32,950 nucleotides of DNA from a virus: IMG/VR virus record IMGVR_UViG_3300010429_000248; one strand, given 5' to 3'. The position numbers and the translations under genes are program-made. Below are positions 7,363-13,701 of the stretch, in pieces (positions within the stretch are counted from its first letter, which is position 1; each line of letters starts with the position of its first letter). The notes under the pieces were generated by a model. It saw only the letters and a program-made list of their open reading frames with translations. It was not told where the DNA came from and searched no databases.

Positions 7363-7911
7363 CTAAAATGATTGTGATTTGTTGCGAATTTCTGCAACAA
7401 GTTGAATGTAGTTTTCGCCGCGTGCTATCATCGCTATCGGACCGGAAGATAAATAGCCGAATTTCCTTGCAATTTCTGATTGAGAAACCCCCTTGTCAAG
7501 CAGTTCTAAAACCTCAACTAATTGGCTTTTTGTAAGTCTTCGTGTGCTCCGATTAGCATCCCCTAATTTTTTATAGGTTGCTTGAAGGTGTCCTTTGTCA
7601 AACGCATCTTTCCAGTTATCGTATGGAGTGCCAAGAAATAAGTGTTCAGGATTTACGCATTTAGGATTGTCGCAAGTGTGACAAACCCATTGACCGTCGG
7701 GAATGTCCCCGTAATTGAGAATGTAGGCTATTCTGTGAGCAAGAAAAGCCTTAAGCACTCGATTTTCTTTTATGTGCAAATAGCCATAGCCAATCGATTT
7801 AGTTGTGCCATTCCATGTCCAACAGCCATCGTCACTTTTAGTAAATCGTTCATAAAAACGTGCGATTACTCGTTCTGGTATTTGGTCTAACCTAAGTCCC
7901 TTTTTTACCAT
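7363..7911 (-). CDS. HNH homing-type endonuclease with a C-terminal HTH
   Basis: GYGYLHIKENRVLKAFLAHRIAYILNYGDIPDGQWVCHTCDNPKCVNPEHLFLGT is HNH_3-like. C-terminal HTH: VSQSEIARKFGYLSSGPIAMIARG. The gene is AT-rich. Trimmed to the ATG at 7911, with GGAG 7 nt upstream. Confidence 0.8.
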   Translation of the reverse strand: MVKKGLRLDQIPERVIARFYERFTKSDDGCWTWNGTTKSIGYGYLHIKENRVLKAFLAHRIAYILNYGDIPDGQWVCHTCDNPKCVNPEHLFLGTPYDNWKDAFDKGHLQATYKKLGDANRSTRRLTKSQLVEVLELLDKGVSQSEIARKFGYLSSGPIAMIARGENYIQLVAEIRNKSQSF

Positions 7912-7921
7912 CTCTACTCCA

Positions 7922-8128
7922 TTAAAAAGGCACATCATCCAACGTTGGATCGTTGGGCTTGATAAATCCACAATGCCAGCACTCGCGGCTCGCGGTCTTG
8001 TACGTGTGCGTGCAATTCGCCTGGATTTCGGCAACCTCTTCGTTCGTGCCGGCTTCGGCTATCGCGTTGACGATTGTCATGTGGTAGCGCCAGTCGTCGT
8101 TGGCGTCTAATTGCGTGTGTCCGTCCAT
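7922..8128 (-). CDS. Hypothetical small protein with a C..H..CxxC cluster
   Basis: 68 aa. CTHTYKTASRECWHCG may bind zinc. Its ATG overlaps the stop of the RHH gene as TAATG. Confidence 0.55.
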   Translation of the reverse strand: MDGHTQLDANDDWRYHMTIVNAIAEAGTNEEVAEIQANCTHTYKTASRECWHCGFIKPNDPTLDDVPF

Positions 8129-8283
8129 TAGTTGCCTCTCAGTTGGTAAGCCGCTTCGATCAAAATGCGGATTGTTTCGGACCTTGTGACCCTGGTCATC
8201 TCGTCTAACTTGGCGAGTGCCTCATCGGTCAGCCATACCCCTACCAGTGTTCTTTTGTTGTTCTGCTTGTTTCGTGTTGCCAT
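8128..8283 (-). CDS. Ribbon-helix-helix (Arc/CopG-like) protein, Cro-analogue position (not in the ORF track)
   Basis: My translation is MATRNKQNNKRTLVGVWLTDEALAKLDEMTRVTRSETIRILIEAAYQLRGN (51 aa). It is the first gene downstream of a consensus leftward promoter, has a GAGG Shine-Dalgarno motif, and is divergent from the cI-like gene. Confidence 0.6.
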   Translation of the reverse strand: MATRNKQNNKRTLVGVWLTDEALAKLDEMTRVTRSETIRILIEAAYQLRGN

Positions 8284-8325
8284 TCAACCTCTCTCTATTT
8301 ACGCTGTTAACTCGTTCTGATGGTG

Positions 8326-8353
8326 ATTATACACTATTGTGTATTCTTGTCAA
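8326..8353 (-). promoter_or_regulatory. Leftward early promoter, sigma-70 consensus
   Basis: The minus strand reads TTGACA (8353-8348), a 16-nt spacer, then TATAAT (8331-8326). This is about 45 nt upstream of the RHH gene start. Confidence 0.7.
8329..8344. promoter_or_regulatory. 16-bp palindromic operator candidate ATACAC-TATT-GTGTAT
   Basis: A perfect inverted repeat overlapping the -10 and spacer of the leftward promoter. The half-site ATTGTGTAT recurs at 8388-8396, overlapping a TATAAT at 8394-8399 on the + strand. Confidence 0.6.
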
Positions 8354-8420
8354 GCACTTTTCACCGAATTAGTAAAATTGGTCTGGAATTGTGTATAATG
8401 TCAATAAATGGTGATTTATT

Positions 8421-8807
8421 ATGCAAACACTGAAAGAATGGCTGGAATATAAATATTTGGAATGGCAAGCCGAACACGGCCGACTGTCTCTAAAAAAGTG
8501 GTCGGATATGCTCGGAATTAAATACAGCTACCTGATGAATATGGTTAGCGGTGAGAACCTGTCAACGTCGATGCAAACGGCTTATGCTATCGGTGAGCGG
8601 CTTGGCGACTTCACGATCCTCGAAGTGTTAGGCTATCCCGTGCCAGACGCGCCACTAATCGGCTTGGCGGATGATGAGCGCAAGGTTGTGCTGGACTGGC
8701 TCGAAAGCGTGAAATTAGCGCTGGACAAAGTGCCCGAAGCGGAACGAATGAGTAAGCTCAACGAAATTCTGGCAGGGCTGCCTGATGCTGAGATGGATGC
8801 GGATTGA
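8421..8807 (+). CDS. cI-like repressor (XRE-type HTH)
   Basis: 128 aa with the HTH LKKWSDMLGIKYSYLMNMVSGE. GGTGA lies 8 nt upstream of the ATG. It is divergent from the RHH gene and lies upstream of int on the same strand. Confidence 0.65.
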   Translation: MQTLKEWLEYKYLEWQAEHGRLSLKKWSDMLGIKYSYLMNMVSGENLSTSMQTAYAIGERLGDFTILEVLGYPVPDAPLIGLADDERKVVLDWLESVKLALDKVPEAERMSKLNEILAGLPDAEMDAD

Positions 8808-8843
8808 GTAAGTCGTTTCATGGTGTGTTGCCCTCCCACGTGT

Positions 8844-8863
8844 ATTATAGCACGCCTGTGCTA
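8844..8863. repeat. 20-nt motif ATTATAGCACGCCTGTGCTA (hairpin-capable), copy A
   Basis: It matches 9999-10018 at 18 of 20 positions. It contains the TAGCAC-GCCT-GTGCTA hairpin followed by ATTATT, 37 nt after the cI stop, so it may also be a weak terminator. Confidence 0.6.
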
Positions 8864-8964
8864 ATTATTGCAATGGTAGCAACCTTAACAAATCGCGTGA
8901 CATTAGGTGACTGGCTTAATAGCGGAATGATAGTGGCAAACACAGCGAACCAACGAGGCGAGTT

Positions 8965-9016
8965 GTTCCCGTGGCCTAATGGATAAGGCACTGGCCTCCG
9001 AAGCCGGTCATGTGGC
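8965..9016 (+). other. tRNA-Arg(CCG)-like 5' fragment, candidate attP core
   Basis: It folds by eye as GTTCCCG-TG-GCCT-AATGGATA-AGGC-A-CTGGC-CTCCGAA-GCCGG-TCATG-TGG. That gives an acceptor 5' strand, a D arm, and an anticodon arm with loop CTCCGAA. No canonical T loop and no CGGGAAC 3' acceptor strand follow. Confidence 0.55.
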
Positions 9017-9074
9017 ACAATCGCCGCCAGCAACTCAGCCCCCTCGTTGAAGCGCACAATTATTGGCGGTAGCA

Positions 9075-9995
9075 ATGAAACAAGGTGACTGGCTTATCCC
9101 AAAAACGCACGATCCCGACAATATTCCTCGCTGGTTCGATGCCTTCCTTTTGGACCGCCGCGCTCAAGGTATGGCGACTGGCACGCTCGAATTCTACCGT
9201 TGGAAGCTGCGCCTTGTTGACCTGTTCCTGAGTTCTCAGAATATCAGATTGGTTAGTGAATTGACGCCCGACCTTGTTCGCTCGCTTCTTATCCACCTCG
9301 AAGAAACACACAATCCAGGCGGCACGCACCAAGTCTACCGCGCGCTCCGAACGTTCCTGAACTGGTACGCTATCGAAGCCGACCCGCCCGACTGGCATAA
9401 TCCCATGAGCAACGTCAAGCCGCCCAAATTGGTGGAGCGCCCGCTTGCGCCGATCTCTATTACTTACCTGAAGAAACTTGTCGCCGCGTGCCCTGACAAT
9501 TTCACCGGCATCCGTGACCGCGCCATTATGCTGTTTCTTTTCGACACTGGTCTGAGAGCCGCCGAACTAATCGCACTTGACCGCGAGGATGTGGATGAGA
9601 TTGACGGCTCGGTGAACGTCAGGAACGGCAAAGGCGGCAAGCCGCGCCTCACCATCATCGGTAAGCGCACCCGCAAGGCTTTACGCGCGTTCCTGCGCTC
9701 ACGAAGTGATGAGGAAGACGCGCTGTTCGTGACCGATGATCTGGAGCGGATGAGTTATCGCGGGCTTGATAATATGCTGAGAAGACGCGCTGAGTTGGCG
9801 AAAGTGCCGAAGCCGACGTTGCATAGTTTCCGGCGCGCGTTTGCATTGAATAGCCTCCGTAATGGCATGGACGTGTTCAGTTTGCAGCGCCTTATGGGGC
9901 ACGCCGACCTTCAAGTGATGAGGCGCTATCTGGCACAAACCGACGACGATCTTCGCACCGCGCACGCCAAAGCGAGTCCAGTTGATTGCTGGTAG
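9075..9995 (+). CDS. int: Tyrosine recombinase / phage integrase (XerC/D-like)
   Basis: Catalytic signature FDTGLRAAEL (R), HSFRRAFA (HxxR) and GHADLQVMRRYL (H...Y), with an N-terminal SAM-like core-binding domain. The ORF track starts at a TTG at 9063. I prefer the ATG at 9075, but this is uncertain. Confidence 0.9.
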   Translation: MKQGDWLIPKTHDPDNIPRWFDAFLLDRRAQGMATGTLEFYRWKLRLVDLFLSSQNIRLVSELTPDLVRSLLIHLEETHNPGGTHQVYRALRTFLNWYAIEADPPDWHNPMSNVKPPKLVERPLAPISITYLKKLVAACPDNFTGIRDRAIMLFLFDTGLRAAELIALDREDVDEIDGSVNVRNGKGGKPRLTIIGKRTRKALRAFLRSRSDEEDALFVTDDLERMSYRGLDNMLRRRAELAKVPKPTLHSFRRAFALNSLRNGMDVFSLQRLMGHADLQVMRRYLAQTDDDLRTAHAKASPVDCW

Positions 9996-9998
9996 GTA

Positions 9999-10018
9999 AT
10001 TATCGCACGCATGTGCTA
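9999..10018. repeat. 20-nt motif ATTATCGCACGCATGTGCTA, copy B
   Basis: It matches 8844-8863 at 18 of 20 positions. It starts 4 nt after the int stop and is followed by GGTTTTTGG. Confidence 0.6.
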
Positions 10019-10046
10019 CTCGCGGTTTTTGGGGCGGATTTTGGGC

Positions 10047-10058
10047 TTAGAAGCGATT
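10047..10058. repeat. Inverted single copy (TTAGAAGCGATT) of the 10223-10252 repeat unit
   Basis: Exact reverse complement of AATCGCTTCTAA. Confidence 0.7.
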
Positions 10059-10140
10059 GTGGTTGTAACGGAAAAAACGATTAATTGCGTGCGAAACCGC
10101 AATCGGACTGCGGAATTTCACGGAACGAAATTGCCGAAAA

Positions 10141-10180
10141 GTGCGGAATGAAATAGGCGTAATTCTCGGACATTCCGCAC
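10141..10180. repeat. Inverted repeat GTGCGGAAT ... ATTCCGCAC (9-bp arms, 22-nt spacer)
   Basis: The arms are at 10141-10149 and 10172-10180. A further TGCGGAAT lies at 10109-10116, and GCGGAATGA also occurs at 8922-8930, upstream of the tRNA fragment. Confidence 0.65.
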
Positions 10181-10222
10181 AATGAAACCGCGCCAAGTCG
10201 CACATTATGCTGATCATAATCA

Positions 10223-10252
10223 CGCTTCTAATCGCTTCTAATCGCTTCTAAT
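10223..10252. repeat. Three perfect tandem copies of CGCTTCTAAT (10-bp phasing), arm-type-site-like
   Basis: The sequence cgcttctaatcgcttctaatcgcttctaat, read directly, is flanked by partial TAATC units. Confidence 0.9.
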
Positions 10253-10284
10253 CACAATTATCGTTGGAGTTATGTGCAGGCGCT

Positions 10285-10308
10285 CACGTTTATCATTTGA
10301 TAAATGTG
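10285..10308. repeat. 24-bp near-perfect palindrome CACGTTTATCAT/TTGATAAATGTG
   Basis: 10 of 12 positions are symmetric. The inner 16 bp, TTTATCA-TT-TGATAAA, are perfectly symmetric. Confidence 0.75.
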
Positions 10309-10485
10309 AACTAGTAATTAGGTTTATCCTGCTTTGTGGTTCAAAGGTGATGAATATTCAGACTTTTGAATGAGATTGTAAGTTTTGCGCTTATTCTTTC
10401 AATGATGTAAGCGACTTTGAAACATTCCTTGTCACCGAACCTTTACTATCGTGCTCGTTTCGTGACTCAAAGTAGCACCATAGTA

Positions 10486-10511
10486 AAGAGCCACCCTTGC
10501 GAGTGGCTCTT
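10486..10511 (-). terminator. Candidate intrinsic terminator of the long leftward operon
   Basis: The minus strand reads AAGAGCCAC-TCGCAAGG-GTGGCTCTT followed by TACTAT. This is a 9-bp stem and an 8-nt loop, with the U tract partly inside the stem. It is downstream of the last minus-strand gene and of the tRNA-like element. Confidence 0.45.
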
Positions 10512-10591
10512 GCCTTGCCGAGCATTGGCGCGCGCTGCCAGTCGGCGGGTCTCAGAAAGGTGCGCATTGTCAAGAGGCGTTCCGGACACTA

Positions 10592-10657
10592 TGCGGAGGT
10601 GGTGGGAGTCGAACCCACGTGTATGCGCCCCGAAAGACGCGCGTCCCCGTCACCCCC
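10592..10657 (-). ncRNA. tRNA-like element: acceptor helix with a G3:U70 pair plus a canonical T arm, no D or anticodon arms (tmRNA-TLD-like or Ala-minihelix-like)
   Basis: The minus strand reads GGGGGTG-ACGGGGACGCGCGTCTTTCGGGGCGCATACAC-GTGGG-TTCGACT-CCCAC-CACCTCC-G-CA. GGGGGTG pairs with CACCTCC over 7 bp, and the third pair is G:T. The T arm is canonical. Confidence 0.6.
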
Positions 10658-10680
10658 ATTTCACTATATTATCACATCGG

Positions 10681-10875
10681 CTAACCTGCCACCTTATTCT
10701 TATCGGTCTGATACCACCCCTGCCCCTTGAAGTGCACCTCCACCGGCAGCCACACGCGCTCCATCAACTCGCGGCACTCGGCGCACACCGGCTCCTCGCG
10801 CTCCTCCATGTCGTACGGCTGCCAGACTTCGACGCGCTTGCCGCATTGCGTGCATTTGTAGACGTAGACGGGCAT
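10681..10875 (-). CDS. FmdB-family zinc-ribbon protein
   Basis: MPVYVYKCTQCGKRVEVWQ...VCAECRELMERVW..VHFKGQGWYQTD matches the FmdB/CxxC_CxxC_SSSS pattern. It ends with a TAG stop. Confidence 0.8.
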   Translation of the reverse strand: MPVYVYKCTQCGKRVEVWQPYDMEEREEPVCAECRELMERVWLPVEVHFKGQGWYQTDKNKVAG

Positions 10876-10877
10876 GG

Positions 10878-11099
10878 TCAGGCCTTCCTGTACGCGGTCG
10901 CCGGCTTGCCGTTCTGCGTTCTAACTTGCCGCGCGATTAGCTGACCAGCGGCAAGTTTGTTCTTCAGCACCGCCGCTGCTTTGCTCCAGCTACAACCCGT
11001 GTAATCTGCGACGCTCTGAGCGGTTACCTCGTCAGGCGCGATGTCGGGCAAGCCTAACTCGCGCGCAAGCTCTTCGAGGAGTTCATATTCGGTCATCAT
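10878..11099 (-). CDS. Small winged-helix-like protein
   Basis: 73 aa (VADYTGCSWSKAAAVLKNKLAAGQLIARQVRTQNGKPATAYR). It has an ATGA overlap with the phosphoesterase gene. Confidence 0.55.
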   Translation of the reverse strand: MMTEYELLEELARELGLPDIAPDEVTAQSVADYTGCSWSKAAAVLKNKLAAGQLIARQVRTQNGKPATAYRKA

Positions 11100-11896
11100 A
11101 GCGTTATCACCTTTCGACCGTCCGGTTGCCCCTTGTACCTTGCGTGCGACAAATCCAACTTGCCGTCATTGAGTAATACCGCGCCAATGTCCGAGCGCCG
11201 TGTGTTGCCAGCCACGCGGTTGGCGTAGGTGGTCTTCAACTGCCACGACGGGCACTGAATAAGCCGCGTATTCTCGAACTTCGAGCCGCTATCGTCCATC
11301 GTGTGCAAGTGACCCCTGAAGATGTAATGTGGCAATGGCAAGCCTGATTGAGCGTAATCTAGCATAATCTCAGACGCCAGACTTGCCGCGCTTGAAGTCC
11401 ACGGTCTGAAGCCAGCCCGCCCGTGGTGCGCCAAGTCAACCAGAACGCCGTCAATGTCGATGGTCATTTGTTGCTCCACGTAATCAGCGCCGAGCTTGCG
11501 GTATAAATCAGCTTCAATGGCATGGTCGGGTCCAGCGTGAACGGCTGTTCCCAAGATGCCAATAAACTTGTCGGCAATGTCGCGGTAAGGTTGCAACAAC
11601 TCCAGCGCCATGACCGCTTGATCGCCGACTTCCTGAACCAATTGCGTGCTGTCGTGGTGGTACGAGTCAATCACGTCGCCCAAGTGAGCAACGATCACGC
11701 GCTTCTTCTTGCGCTTCTCGTTTACGTAATCCCAGAAGTCAACCCAGTTACGATGTAGCCATCGTTGCAAGCGGTTGGCTTCCATGACTTGCGCCTCGTA
11801 ACTGGAGCGGTTGTGCACCGTGAACTTCAACGGAGCAATAGCGGTTGAACTGCCAATATGAGTATCAGACAGAACGACCAGGATTGTTCCGCTCAT
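11096..11896 (-). CDS. Calcineurin-like metallophosphoesterase
   Basis: Motifs VLSDTHIGS (DxH), HLGDVIDSYHH (GDxxD), GTAVHAGPDH, DLAHHG and RGHLHT (GHxH). Confidence 0.75.
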   Translation of the reverse strand: MSGTILVVLSDTHIGSSTAIAPLKFTVHNRSSYEAQVMEANRLQRWLHRNWVDFWDYVNEKRKKKRVIVAHLGDVIDSYHHDSTQLVQEVGDQAVMALELLQPYRDIADKFIGILGTAVHAGPDHAIEADLYRKLGADYVEQQMTIDIDGVLVDLAHHGRAGFRPWTSSAASLASEIMLDYAQSGLPLPHYIFRGHLHTMDDSGSKFENTRLIQCPSWQLKTTYANRVAGNTRRSDIGAVLLNDGKLDLSHARYKGQPDGRKVITL

Positions 11897-13701
11897 GCCA
11901 CGAGCCTTGTCACGTCCGCAGTCACGACCAAGCCGCCCGTTGTGAGCGTACTCACCTCCGCCGCTTCGATTAGCTGAATGTCGTACACGTAAGAGCCGGG
12001 CACAAGATCATCCGTAACAGCCGCCTTGAGCATGATCGTTATGTCACCTGTTGGCGCGTCGGTTATGGTAATCGAGCCGTCCGTGCCGGTCGTGTAAGCC
12101 GCTCCGTTCAAGCGCACAAGCCCGTCTGTCAAGCCGGTGGCGTTCTTGCGGATGCGGACAATGGCGTCGTCATCAGCTTCGTAGGCGGAGCGTTTGATCG
12201 TAAAGTCGAGGCTAACGTACGATGCCAGACTGCCTAAGTTGAGCAATGCCGCCGAGAGCGTGTCGCCTCGCAGGATTGTTATTGTCGAGCCAATTACGGC
12301 GGTCACAAATTCAACCGAGCTCACATTCAACTTGTCTAAAACATCGTCTACTTTGTCGCCGATGATTTCAAGTTCCTCTGAAGTAGCAATACCAGTAGGG
12401 TCAACGGTTGCTGAAGCGTCAATCTTATTTGGGACTGTGAATGCCATTTGATCGGTCTTTACTTTTATGGCATCAACGTTCCCGTCAATAGTTGCCAGCG
12501 CTGTTGAGGTCGCCAACCCAGATGTATCCACAGTTGCGGTTGCATCGATCTTATTTGGTGTGGTGAATACCATCTGGTCGGTCTTCGCCTTGATCGCCGC
12601 AATGCCAGCGTTATCAGGCGCAGTATAGCCAGATGCCAACAGGGGCGCTGTTGGGATAGCCGCAATCGCCGCCGTGTATTCGCCAGCTTCAGCAGGCGCG
12701 GCAGGAATAAGGTCGGTCTTCAGCTTGATAGCGTCCACAATGCCGTCAATCGTGGTAATCTCGGTGTCGATGAAGTTGTCCACCGCGTCAAGAGCCGCCG
12801 CCGTTGCTAACGCGCTCACATCCGCCTTGTAATCGTTGATGGTCTCGGACGGCACGACCTTCTGATTTTTCGCACCGAATGAACCAACCGAAGTGTGGTC
12901 TGCAATCGCCTCGTCCCAGACCGCGTCTGCCACGCTTGCGGCTGTTGGTGCTGCGGCAATCGTGTCGGTCTTTGCTTTGATGGCGTCAATCAGCAAGTCG
13001 GTTCTGCCACCGTCGGCAAGTTCAGCCTGCAACTCGTTGGTGTCAGCCAGAATGTCAGCTATTTCCGTATCAAGGAAGTTGTCGATGGTGTCAATCTTGC
13101 CGTCAAGTGCTGTAATGGATGCGGCGGTAGCAACCGTGCTCAACTCACCGCTCGCTATTTTGACCCCGTCCGTGCCAGTGTCGGTCAGGATAGCCGCCGT
13201 GTCCGACTTGACAGCCGGTAGGTCAGTGTCGTGAATGTCGGTCAGCATCGTTTCCAAGCCATCAACGAGGTCATCCAAAGTCGTGCCCGTATCTTCCAAG
13301 ATGGCGGCTGATGTTGTCTGTGTGGCAATATCATTCGGGTCGTTGGTCAGCAATTGCACTTCCAATAAGACAGGTGCCATGTTAGCCGCCCCCTTCAGCA
13401 TCACGATTGCGCTTGGCACGCCCGTTGCGCATACCGCGTCTGGCAGGTCGAGCCTGTAAACGCCCGGCATGTTCGTGGCGTCCACCTCAACGAACCCACC
13501 GTCCGAGTGTGCCCCCGTGACGGTCTGCGTTGCCAACGTGATTGCCGCCGCGCTTCCGAGTGGGCGGACATAGTAGGCGGTCAGTGAGGCTGTGTTGTAT
13601 GCCAAACCTGCCAGCCCAACGCCCGTAGTCTTGGAACTATCTTGCGCGAACAGGTAGACCGTTACGTCCGTTGCCGCTTTTTTGAGTGTGAGTTTAGCCA
13701 T
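11893..13701 (-). CDS. Tail fiber with repetitive Ala/Thr/Asp-rich shaft
   Basis: 602 aa with repeated modules (IDTIDNFLDTEIADIL / VDNFIDTEITTIDGIVDAIKLKTD / IKAKTDQMVFTTPNKIDATATVD / IKVKTDQMAFTVPNKIDASATVD). It lies at the distal end of the tail module. Confidence 0.7.
   Translation of the reverse strand: MAKLTLKKAATDVTVYLFAQDSSKTTGVGLAGLAYNTASLTAYYVRPLGSAAAITLATQTVTGAHSDGGFVEVDATNMPGVYRLDLPDAVCATGVPSAIVMLKGAANMAPVLLEVQLLTNDPNDIATQTTSAAILEDTGTTLDDLVDGLETMLTDIHDTDLPAVKSDTAAILTDTGTDGVKIASGELSTVATAASITALDGKIDTIDNFLDTEIADILADTNELQAELADGGRTDLLIDAIKAKTDTIAAAPTAASVADAVWDEAIADHTSVGSFGAKNQKVVPSETINDYKADVSALATAAALDAVDNFIDTEITTIDGIVDAIKLKTDLIPAAPAEAGEYTAAIAAIPTAPLLASGYTAPDNAGIAAIKAKTDQMVFTTPNKIDATATVDTSGLATSTALATIDGNVDAIKVKTDQMAFTVPNKIDASATVDPTGIATSEELEIIGDKVDDVLDKLNVSSVEFVTAVIGSTITILRGDTLSAALLNLGSLASYVSLDFTIKRSAYEADDDAIVRIRKNATGLTDGLVRLNGAAYTTGTDGSITITDAPTGDITIMLKAAVTDDLVPGSYVYDIQLIEAAEVSTLTTGGLVVTADVTRLVA

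Follow-up and report, generated by a model that had tools for sequence, protein, structure and literature searches.

A probable tmRNA-derived RNA gene reduced to its tRNA-like domain at the late-operon end of a metagenomic temperate phage

The stretch of DNA analysed here, called the window below, is the 32,950-nt IMG/VR virus record IMGVR_UViG_3300010429_000248 (ENA ERZ27257455 k141_186315), a metagenomic contig of 52.6% G+C that represents a temperate phage of about 33 kb. Its late operon, with terminase, portal, head, tail and endolysin genes, occupies the minus strand and runs down to position 10681; a tyrosine integrase gene (int) converges on it from the plus strand. Between the two, on the strand of the late operon, lies a short element that a first-pass annotation had described as the tRNA-like domain (TLD) of a transfer-messenger RNA (tmRNA) lacking the mRNA-like and pseudoknot body. 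Direct reading of the minus strand from 10657 to 10591 found it at that place, as GGGGGUG-A-CGGGGAC-GCGCGUCUUUCGGGGCGC-AUACAC-GUGGG-UUCGACU-CCCAC-CACCUCC-G-CAU, with G1 at 10657. We have good confidence that it is a tmRNA-derived RNA gene consisting of the TLD only, or mini-tmRNA, and not a phage attachment site (attP). The features of the locus are the following.

10681..10875, minus strand: last gene of the late operon, encoding a 64-aa Zn-ribbon protein (FmdB-like; PF09723, phrog_1076), with its stop codon TAG at 10683-10681
10663..10692, minus strand: putative promoter-like site GTGGCA-18 nt-TATAGT from a consensus scan, the -10 end lying 5 nt before G1
10595..10657, minus strand: body of the mini-tmRNA (TLD-only) gene, G1 to C72, 63 nt, delimited by the Rfam tmRNA ends, the R1 model and the TLD pattern described below
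10651..10657, minus strand: 5' acceptor strand GGGGGUG, pairing with 10595-10601 and followed by A8 at 10650
10643..10649, minus strand: shortened D-loop analogue CGGGGAC, in which GG is kept and the UUCGA of standard TLDs is missing
10625..10642, minus strand: P2-like hairpin GCGCGUCUUUCGGGGCGC, from the minimum free energy (MFE) fold
10602..10618, minus strand: T arm GUGGG-UUCGACU-CCCAC with a canonical T loop, abutting the 3' acceptor strand
10595..10601, minus strand: 3' acceptor strand CACCUCC, with U70 at 10597 opposite G3
10591..10594, minus strand: discriminator G73 (10594) followed by CAU, as read from the sequence; CCA is not encoded
10486..10511, minus strand: terminator-like hairpin AAGAGCCAC-8 nt-GUGGCUCUU (inverted repeat I11), about 85 nt downstream of the mini-tmRNA, with a weak U-tract
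9063..9995, plus strand: tyrosine integrase (phrog_1, E 6e-44; PF00589), convergent with the mini-tmRNA from about 600 nt away
8965..9035, plus strand: tRNA-Arg(CCG)-like element, probably the attP core (Rfam tRNA, 34.1 bits)

The strands GGGGGUG and CACCUCC form an acceptor stem in which seven of seven positions pair, G3:U70 included, both in the MFE fold and in the alignment to the Rfam tmRNA model. A canonical T arm abuts this stem, and all 12 acceptor and T-stem pairs are intact, in agreement with the first-pass description. The 32 nt between the 5' acceptor strand and the T arm hold neither a D arm nor an anticodon arm, so that there is no cloverleaf, and the Rfam tRNA model had no match at the element. 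They form a 6-bp hairpin. Here the earlier pairing of CGGGGAC with GUCUUUCG gives way to a better-supported one, GCGC.GU/CG.GCGC (10642-10625). The unconstrained MFE fold consists of exactly the acceptor stem, one hairpin and the T arm. No open reading frame (ORF) or stop-terminated frame was found inside the 32-nt middle.

Both termini of the element are recognised by the Rfam tmRNA model RF00023, which aligns over model positions 1-374 with its 326-nt body replaced by 27 nt (34.7 bits, E 1.1e-11 for 2.7 kb searched). This score is below the gathering score of 47, and the Rfam threshold for a standard tmRNA is thus not reached. ARAGORN, which had been proposed as a check together with Rfam, reported no tmRNA at the element but an anomalous 'tRNA-???' with a 2-nt anticodon at 10593-10663 on the minus strand. 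The TLD pattern GGGGNNGA-N20-50-GGTTCGANTCCNNNCNNCTCC has one match in the window and none in 100 shuffles. We also built a covariance model, R1, from 75 mini-tmRNAs of IMG/VR phages, a training set retrieved with a pattern that the window element matches as well. R1 has a single match in the window, the element itself, at 43.5 bits (E about 8e-7 over 158 kb), while the element of mycobacteriophage DS6A scores 48.6 bits, the relatives of the window element 50-55 bits and true tRNAs 17-31 bits. The window element has the lowest R1 score among members with a canonical T loop. A mascRNA/menRNA-like identity (RF01684) was rejected at 19.9 bits against a gathering score of 42.5 (E 0.95).

The ends of the element had been said to resemble tmRNA gene termini, and this likeness proved to be exact: its 5' end GGGGGUGA and 3' end ACGUGGGUUCGACUCCCACCACCUCC are identical to those of full-length ssrA genes of Holophagae, Thermoanaerobaculia, Opitutae, Geobacteraceae, Halanaerobium and others. 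In the 3' part the identity with the 3' end of ssrA of many phyla extends over 26 nt, and a genome scan with a 24-nt T-arm/acceptor pattern returned solely full-length ssrA genes, again from many phyla, and no prophage junction. The element shares with standard ssrA (RF00023) the coaxial stack of acceptor stem and T arm as well as G3:U70. However, a standard ssrA gene measures 320-380 nt, whereas the window element has about 63 nt and lacks the resume codon, the tag ORF and the pseudoknots. The more than 100 host ssrA genes inspected all have A73, and nearly all ACCA, in contrast to the G73 and missing CCA of the window element, two peculiarities that the first reading had listed as caveats and that are both real.

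Relatives of the element were searched among phages. Megablast of positions 8000-13000 against GenBank phages gave no match, and blastn of the element against the same set found solely T-arm-length matches to tRNAs and tmRNAs. Mini-tmRNAs lie at the same place in loci L141, L273-L283, L274, L271, L151 and L154 (L plus a number denotes a locus of this analysis), and a metagenome scan and R1 contributed those other than L141. The one in L141, whose integrase is 69% identical to that of the window, occupies the same convergent position and scores 35.3 bits with the Rfam tmRNA model. Upstream of the mini-tmRNA in L273, L275, L279-L283 and L274 lie homologues of the window proteins p266, p73 and Zn-ribbon (38-89% identity), the Zn-ribbon homologues of L273-L283 and L274 being 38-41% identical. 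Downstream of it these loci have no integrase; a terminator comes next, and then early genes that include RecT and methyltransferases. L273, L274 and L279 combine the Zn-ribbon gene and the mini-tmRNA with no integrase downstream. In L273-L283 the last ORF runs into the mini-tmRNA, and a strong terminator follows directly. The mini-tmRNA travels with the end of the late operon, not with int.

Diverged mini-tmRNAs at the syntenic spot in L151 (5830..5762, minus strand) and L154 (1625..1550, minus strand) were found by R1 and missed by Rfam. They have the acceptor GGGGCUG/CAGCUCC, A8 and A73, and their T stems covary (CCGCC/GGCGG versus GCGGC/GUCGC), while the T loop is a non-canonical hexanucleotide, UGCAAU. 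Across the relatives the acceptor changes from GGGGGUG/CACCUCC to GGGGCUG/CAGCUCC, with G5:C68 becoming C5:G68 in L151 and L154. The T stem occurs as GUGGG/CCCAC, AGCGG/CCGCU, GGCGG/CCGCC, GUCGG/CCGAC and GGGGG/CCCCC, with compensatory changes in three stem pairs. The middle hairpin is present in every relative in unrelated sequences, and between L141 and L273 it shows a compensatory A-U to G-C change. In an alignment of 11 sequences, 100% of the cells pair, compared with 55-65% when the partners are slid, and double changes affect four pairs (14 cells), namely acceptor pair 5:68 and three T-stem pairs. The covariation score of this alignment is 0.282, compared with 0.080 in shuffles, and none of 500 shuffles reaches it. 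The alignment is model-fitted, and the patterns used to retrieve 9 of its 11 sequences (all but L151 and L154) prescribe parts of the helices. Compensatory changes, which had been suggested as a check, are thus found in the acceptor stem, the T stem and the hairpin, and with the Rfam and R1 matches they bear out the layout of a TLD without the tmRNA body.

Two features of the window copy stand out. The class consensus of the D-loop analogue is GGnUUCGAC, from which the window departs with CGGGGAC where L141 has CGGGUAUCGA, and the discriminator is G, which is unique to this phage among all relatives examined. L271 has the same shortened D-loop form, combined there with A73 and ACCA, so that G73 is the real outlier.

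The element sits at the 3' end of the late operon and is probably transcribed. The gap between the stop codon of the Zn-ribbon gene and the mini-tmRNA is 23 nt on the same strand; the first-pass annotation had position and strand right but counted 24 nt. The -10-like motif that it noticed upstream is real: in the consensus scan a TATAGT box, overlapping TGATAATAT, has its last base at 10663, 5 nt before G1. Box and spacer are kept in the diverged relative L154 ('gtgataacataatgaaatGGGG' versus 'gtgataatatagtgaaatGGGG'), and similar boxes lie upstream of the L141 mini-tmRNA and of a 76-nt IMG/VR family described below. This conservation suggests that a primary transcript may start at G1. As for the terminator-like hairpin reported downstream, the inverted repeat at 10511-10486 exists, but its U-tract is poor and the terminator scan did not call it.

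An int gene converging on the mini-tmRNA is a classic place for an attP, and we therefore examined homologous integrases and their loci. All homologous integrases (48-69% identity) have a tRNA-derived site immediately 5' of int, which corresponds to tRNA-Met in L142, tRNA-Lys in L154 and tRNA-Arg(CCG) in L141. In L149, an Anaerolineaceae metagenome-assembled genome whose integrase is 57% identical, an island has a complete tRNA-Met gene at each border; the two copies are identical, and the first lies immediately 5' of int. In L151, a 35-kb phage from the same samples (integrase 58% identical), the last ~50 nt of this tRNA-Met lie just 5' of int, with GGTCAAAAGCGGAA repeats before them. The corresponding place in the window, 8965-9035, shares a 37-nt perfect block with the intact L141 tRNA-Arg. 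The block starts at acceptor position 5 and reaches the anticodon stem on its 3' side, after which the sequences diverge fully. Unusually, it is the 5' two-thirds of the element that are tRNA-like, the remaining 3' third being unrelated and carrying a non-canonical T loop. Direct repeats of AGGTGACTGGCTTA stand on either side of the element (8905-8918 and 9083-9096) and have counterparts in L141; a CAACGAG/CTCGTTG inverted repeat, also seen in L151 and L149, flanks it as well. A tRNA-like core with arm repeats 5' of int is the architecture of an attP, which places the integrase site on the far side of int from the mini-tmRNA. The element at 8965-9035 is thus probably the true attP core, and integration there would rebuild a tRNA at attR from the phage-borne 5' half. 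The 17 contigs that we read with the neighbouring gene all (17/17) show the attP, or unintegrated, arrangement. The earlier suggestion of a relic ssrA-type attP at the mini-tmRNA is rejected on these data.

The closest known counterpart is found in mycobacteriophage DS6A, which is listed with a 'TLD only' tmRNA (Hudson, Lau & Williams 2014, PMC4131195; tmRNA Website 'Phage__Mycobacterium.9'). The 2025 tmRNA database paper makes the same point and adds plastid tmRNAs of ~65 bp without a coding sequence (PMC11915505). A similar molecule, chargeable or not, is cited as strongly inhibiting tmRNA in E. coli, perhaps by titration of SmpB (Mao et al. 2009, as cited in PMC4131195 and PMC11915505). We located the DS6A element at JN698994 28478-28560, 11 nt after the gp33 stop codon on the same strand and about 10 kb from the integrase; it has C8 and the T arm GAGUUCGAUUCUC. 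As in the window, tmRNA termini are joined by a short hairpin that replaces the pseudoknots and the tag ORF, the Rfam tmRNA score is sub-threshold (43.2 versus 34.7 bits) and R1 matches (48.6 versus 43.5 bits). Both elements carry G3:U70, neither encodes CCA (ACUA versus GCAU), each stands right after the last late gene on the same strand, and in both phages the attP is tRNA-derived and unlinked, the integration site of DS6A being tRNA-Lys and not ssrA (PMC10865867). They differ in length from G1 to C72 (79 nt versus 63 nt in the window) and in the discriminator (A73 versus G73). Moreover, DS6A has a D-loop analogue (UGGUGGUCGAC), a longer P2 and an internal UAAAACC-N4-GG motif, which the window element lacks. 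The host of DS6A belongs to the Actinobacteria, whereas the window phage probably infects Chloroflexota.

Organellar tmRNAs of jakobid mitochondria and of Mallomonadaceae plastids (~65 bp, PMC11915505) are also TLD-only, about 65 nt long and without a tag frame, and are thought to act with SmpB. They replace the full tmRNA, whereas the phage RNA is proposed to coexist and compete with a full-length host tmRNA. The attP of phages and islands that integrate into ssrA (Williams 2002/2003; mycobacteriophage cluster K1 attB-9) carries a 3'-terminal ssrA segment, and the window element likewise lies near an integrase. Such an attP, however, consists of the 3' portion only and runs through the gene end, restoring a functional tmRNA, while the window element adds a 5' strand, stops before A73-CCA and is not where its integrase family recombines. 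In the literature searched, which was not exhaustive, we found no description of a TLD-only phage class beyond DS6A. A survey of tmRNAs in phage genomes relied on ARAGORN (PMC9004378), so that full-length forms alone were visible to it. A paper on AcrIIIA1 concerns fragments of host t(m)RNA and was set aside as irrelevant here.

Similar RNAs are frequent in viral metagenomes. A first scan of IMG/VR yielded 15 contigs of another phage type with a 76-nt mini-tmRNA that has the same ends, an unrelated A+U-rich middle and a place beside the large terminase gene. This family (L001-L015, L249 and L266; for instance L001, 5049-5124) has an acceptor and T arm like those of the window and a TATACT box 7 nt before G1. 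Its frame AUG CUU AUC CAA AUA CUC AUC UAA was considered as a hidden mini tag ORF and rejected: the peptide MLIQILI is not tag-like, the window has no such frame, and we treat it as chance. With a general pattern (GGGGNNGA, a gap of 20-50 nt, GGTTCGANTCC, NNNCNNCTCC) at least 120 loci were retrieved, L156-L270 among them, corresponding to at least 108 distinct mini-tmRNAs of 55-79 nt. ARAGORN calls almost none of the IMG/VR mini-tmRNAs.

Among the matches listed, 90 mini-tmRNAs have 7/7 acceptor and 5/5 T-stem pairs, although chance pairing of the free helix positions is expected in well under 5% of cases. All 90 of these have A73, even though the pattern leaves the discriminator free, and in most cases a C comes next. 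As a control, a pattern with G3:C70 was run and yielded 60 distinct sequences; only 28 are fully paired, more than half are ordinary tRNAs, and the discriminators are mixed, with A (11), U (9) and G (8). The contrast between an invariant A73 with G3:U70 and a mixed discriminator with G3:C70 indicates that the alanine identity set appears to be selected. Most mini-tmRNAs share a UAARRCC-N4-GG motif in the P2 hairpin, which DS6A has too, resembling a conserved stretch 5' of the resume codon in full tmRNAs. RNAalifold on a 75-sequence MAFFT alignment recovered the acceptor and T stems only, the P2 region being misaligned. Upstream neighbours are co-oriented with the mini-tmRNA in 57 of 69 cases. 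The top 25 Pfam families of 135 immediate neighbour ORFs are led by Portal (7) and TerL (7) and include no integrase.

Trans-translation is the main bacterial ribosome-rescue pathway, and some phages depend on it; to our knowledge its manipulation by phages has barely been explored. From the features described above we infer the following mode of action. The RNA would be transcribed by read-through of the late operon, or from its own -10-like box starting at or next to G1. Its 3' end would be trimmed and, since no CCA is encoded, we propose that a host enzyme adds it. The product would fold like the TLD of tmRNA and could be bound above all by SmpB, at the TLD elbow, and possibly by alanyl-tRNA synthetase (AlaRS) and EF-Tu. 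Members of the class with A73 would probably be alanylated and delivered by EF-Tu. As the RNA has neither a resume codon nor a tag ORF, it could not tag proteins and would instead compete with host tmRNA, so that trans-translation may be lowered or rewired in late infection. The net effect could be titration of SmpB, for which there is a tested precedent, or transfer of the peptide without a tag. G3:U70 is the major identity determinant for AlaRS and A73 contributes to it. By these identity rules weaker charging is expected with G73, which favours a decoy role for the window copy. Given G73 and the shortened D-loop analogue, we consider it likelier that this copy serves as a poorly chargeable decoy for SmpB than that it donates alanine. 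Such a role would match the sole experimental precedent, that of Mao et al. (2009) as it is cited in PMC4131195 and PMC11915505. For the specific decoy mechanism we see somewhat less than an even chance.

To the combined reading, a tag-less phage mini-tmRNA that competes with host tmRNA, we assign a probability of about 0.6. Several points weigh against it. The least fitting is the UGCAAU T loop found in L151 and L154. A strictly tRNA-like or SmpB-dependent role hardly accommodates such a loop, which suggests that some phages of this group are under a relaxed T-loop constraint. With its G73 and truncated D-loop analogue, the window copy deviates from a class whose A73 does not vary, and it could be impaired or decaying. 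The experimental precedent appears limited to DS6A-like constructs in E. coli. The mimicry of a host TLD would draw solely on the 26-nt identity with ssrA of many phyla. The fitted and largely pattern-retrieved alignment behind the covariation score must be added to these points, as must the MFE z-score of the element (-1.3), which is not significant; such z-scores are weak for GC-rich mini-tmRNAs and stability was consequently left out of the evidence.

The departures of the window copy could also mean that an ancestral mini-tmRNA is decaying in this lineage, through G73, the missing CCA and the shortened D-loop analogue, into a non-functional relic. We regard this as unlikely. While G73 is unique among all relatives and the 90 fully paired mini-tmRNAs listed, the R1 score is the lowest among members with a canonical T loop (43.5 versus 50-55 bits) and that loop is lost in L151 and L154, the 12 helix pairs are all intact, the shortened D-loop form accompanies A73 and ACCA in L271 and the -10-like box is shared with L154. 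TLD constructs are moreover described, in a work cited by PMC4131195, as inhibiting tmRNA whether chargeable or not. Contigs from several samples also carry the element unchanged, but in these the phage as a whole is near-identical. Alternatively, the RNA may act in cis, as a tRNA-like processing or stability mark whose cleavage by RNase P and RNase Z would define the 3' terminus of the late polycistronic mRNA or shield it, with no role in trans. Its position 23 nt past the last late gene on the same strand fits this idea, as do the prevalence of the class within co-oriented gene arrays, in some cases perhaps between TerL and portal, and the arrangement in L273-L283, where the last ORF enters the element and a terminator comes directly after. 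Neither RNase P nor RNase Z, however, requires G3:U70 together with A73 in its substrate, and still the class keeps A73 throughout, the few look-alikes with G3:C70 are for the most part true tRNAs, and the conserved -10-like box is placed for a start at G1. We find a purely cis-acting mark quite unlikely, but processing is compatible with competition against host tmRNA and is possible as a secondary effect.

It is highly improbable that the element is an attP or the relic of an ssrA-targeting module, whose 3' part would be an ssrA identity block and whose 5' strand would be a capture accident. The lambda-like position flanked by the late-operon end and by the 3' terminus of int, the 26-nt identity with ssrA and a 10-nt copy of the acceptor 3' strand 27 nt downstream in L141 would all suit this view. 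Yet the att site of this integrase family is tRNA-derived and lies on the 5' side of int, and the ssrA identity ends at C72, followed by GCAU and not ACCA, so that recombination here would leave a tmRNA gene with G73 and without CCA. In addition, the 5' acceptor strand, A8 and the hairpin are conserved and covarying, relatives keep the element with no adjacent integrase, and the commonest neighbours of the class include no integrases. A chance likeness, or an ordinary tRNA that has degenerated, we consider practically negligible: ARAGORN forces a 'tRNA-???' onto the element and its folding energy is unremarkable, but the Rfam E value is 1e-11, the pattern occurs in 0 of 100 shuffles, many phages have homologues, and D and anticodon arms are absent.

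The window element thus belongs to the TLD-only phage tmRNAs, a kind that is known but little noticed, and is a new and somewhat reduced example of it. In the literature searched this kind is so far documented for one cultured phage, DS6A, and for some organelles. To these the window adds a second, clear lineage, whose phages probably infect uncultivated Chloroflexota. TLD-only RNAs are common in viral metagenomes, where they lie within late operons and carry alanine identity elements, and neither ARAGORN nor Rfam at its gathering threshold reports them. We tentatively raise a broader view, with the odds leaning against it: mini-tmRNAs would form a large missed class with the full alanine identity set, co-transcribed with structural and late genes and reprogramming ribosome rescue, and the present phage group would be evolving toward a non-chargeable, pure protein decoy. 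If so, rescue could be reprogrammed through a block of tmRNA-SmpB or through 'tag-less rescue', in which the alanyl group is transferred but no tag is added, so that phage proteins would escape ssrA-directed proteolysis. The G73 and shortened D-loop analogue of the window and the UGCAAU T loop of L151 and L154 would then be signs of the non-chargeable trend. The natural variants (A73 versus G73, with or without the D-loop analogue, canonical versus non-canonical T loop) are well suited to tests of the minimal RNA for SmpB, AlaRS and the ribosome, and of whether phages inhibit or hijack ribosome rescue.

Some further observations concern individual loci. In L141 (4146..4100, minus strand) the 10 nt of 3' acceptor strand plus discriminator (CACCTCCACT) are repeated 27 nt downstream of the mini-tmRNA, and a palindrome AATTGAGT-TTT-ACTCAATT follows; the repeat may have been left behind when the 3' end once recombined or was duplicated. 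In L274 (4858-5224, minus strand) ARAGORN builds a permuted two-piece tmRNA with the tag ATNKGHNILTRAHREPVL around the 70-nt mini-tmRNA, a call that is probably an artefact, the tag being unlike known tags. In one phage group (L157, L173, L196, L205, L235, L267 and L268) the mini-tmRNA lies between two co-oriented ORFs of ~375 and 470 aa, which may or may not be portal and TerL. One neighbour in the class is a TROVE (Ro60-like) protein. A 63-nt tRNA-like RNA of the same acceptor, hairpin and T-arm layout occurs in L310, L319, L349 and L350 of IMG/VR, with G3:C70 and a U discriminator (GGGGATGA...ATATAAGCGTGGGTTCGATTCCCACCATCCCC-tttt), and thus without the alanine identity elements.

In the window, the stretch from int to the mini-tmRNA (10022-10260) is dense in repeats. 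It contains three tandem copies of CGCTTCTAATC (10223-10253) with an inverted copy (10047-10058), TGCGGAAT-type repeats (10109-10180) and GCGGTTTTTGGG twice (10022-10045). The repeats at 10040-10260 were considered as attP arm sites and rejected, as they are too far from either candidate core and a core with arms was found 5' of int; the stretch could hold operators, iterons or a small regulatory region. The intergenic regions from int to the mini-tmRNA of the window and L141 align poorly in MAFFT, and a block of this stretch, ATTCCGCAGTCCGATTGCG, is kept in L151 downstream of its int. Finally, the HNH endonuclease genes at 7363-8034 and 1071-1802, both on the minus strand, are missing from the otherwise near-identical contigs L017 and L144 of other samples, a presence/absence polymorphism typical of mobile homing-type HNH genes.

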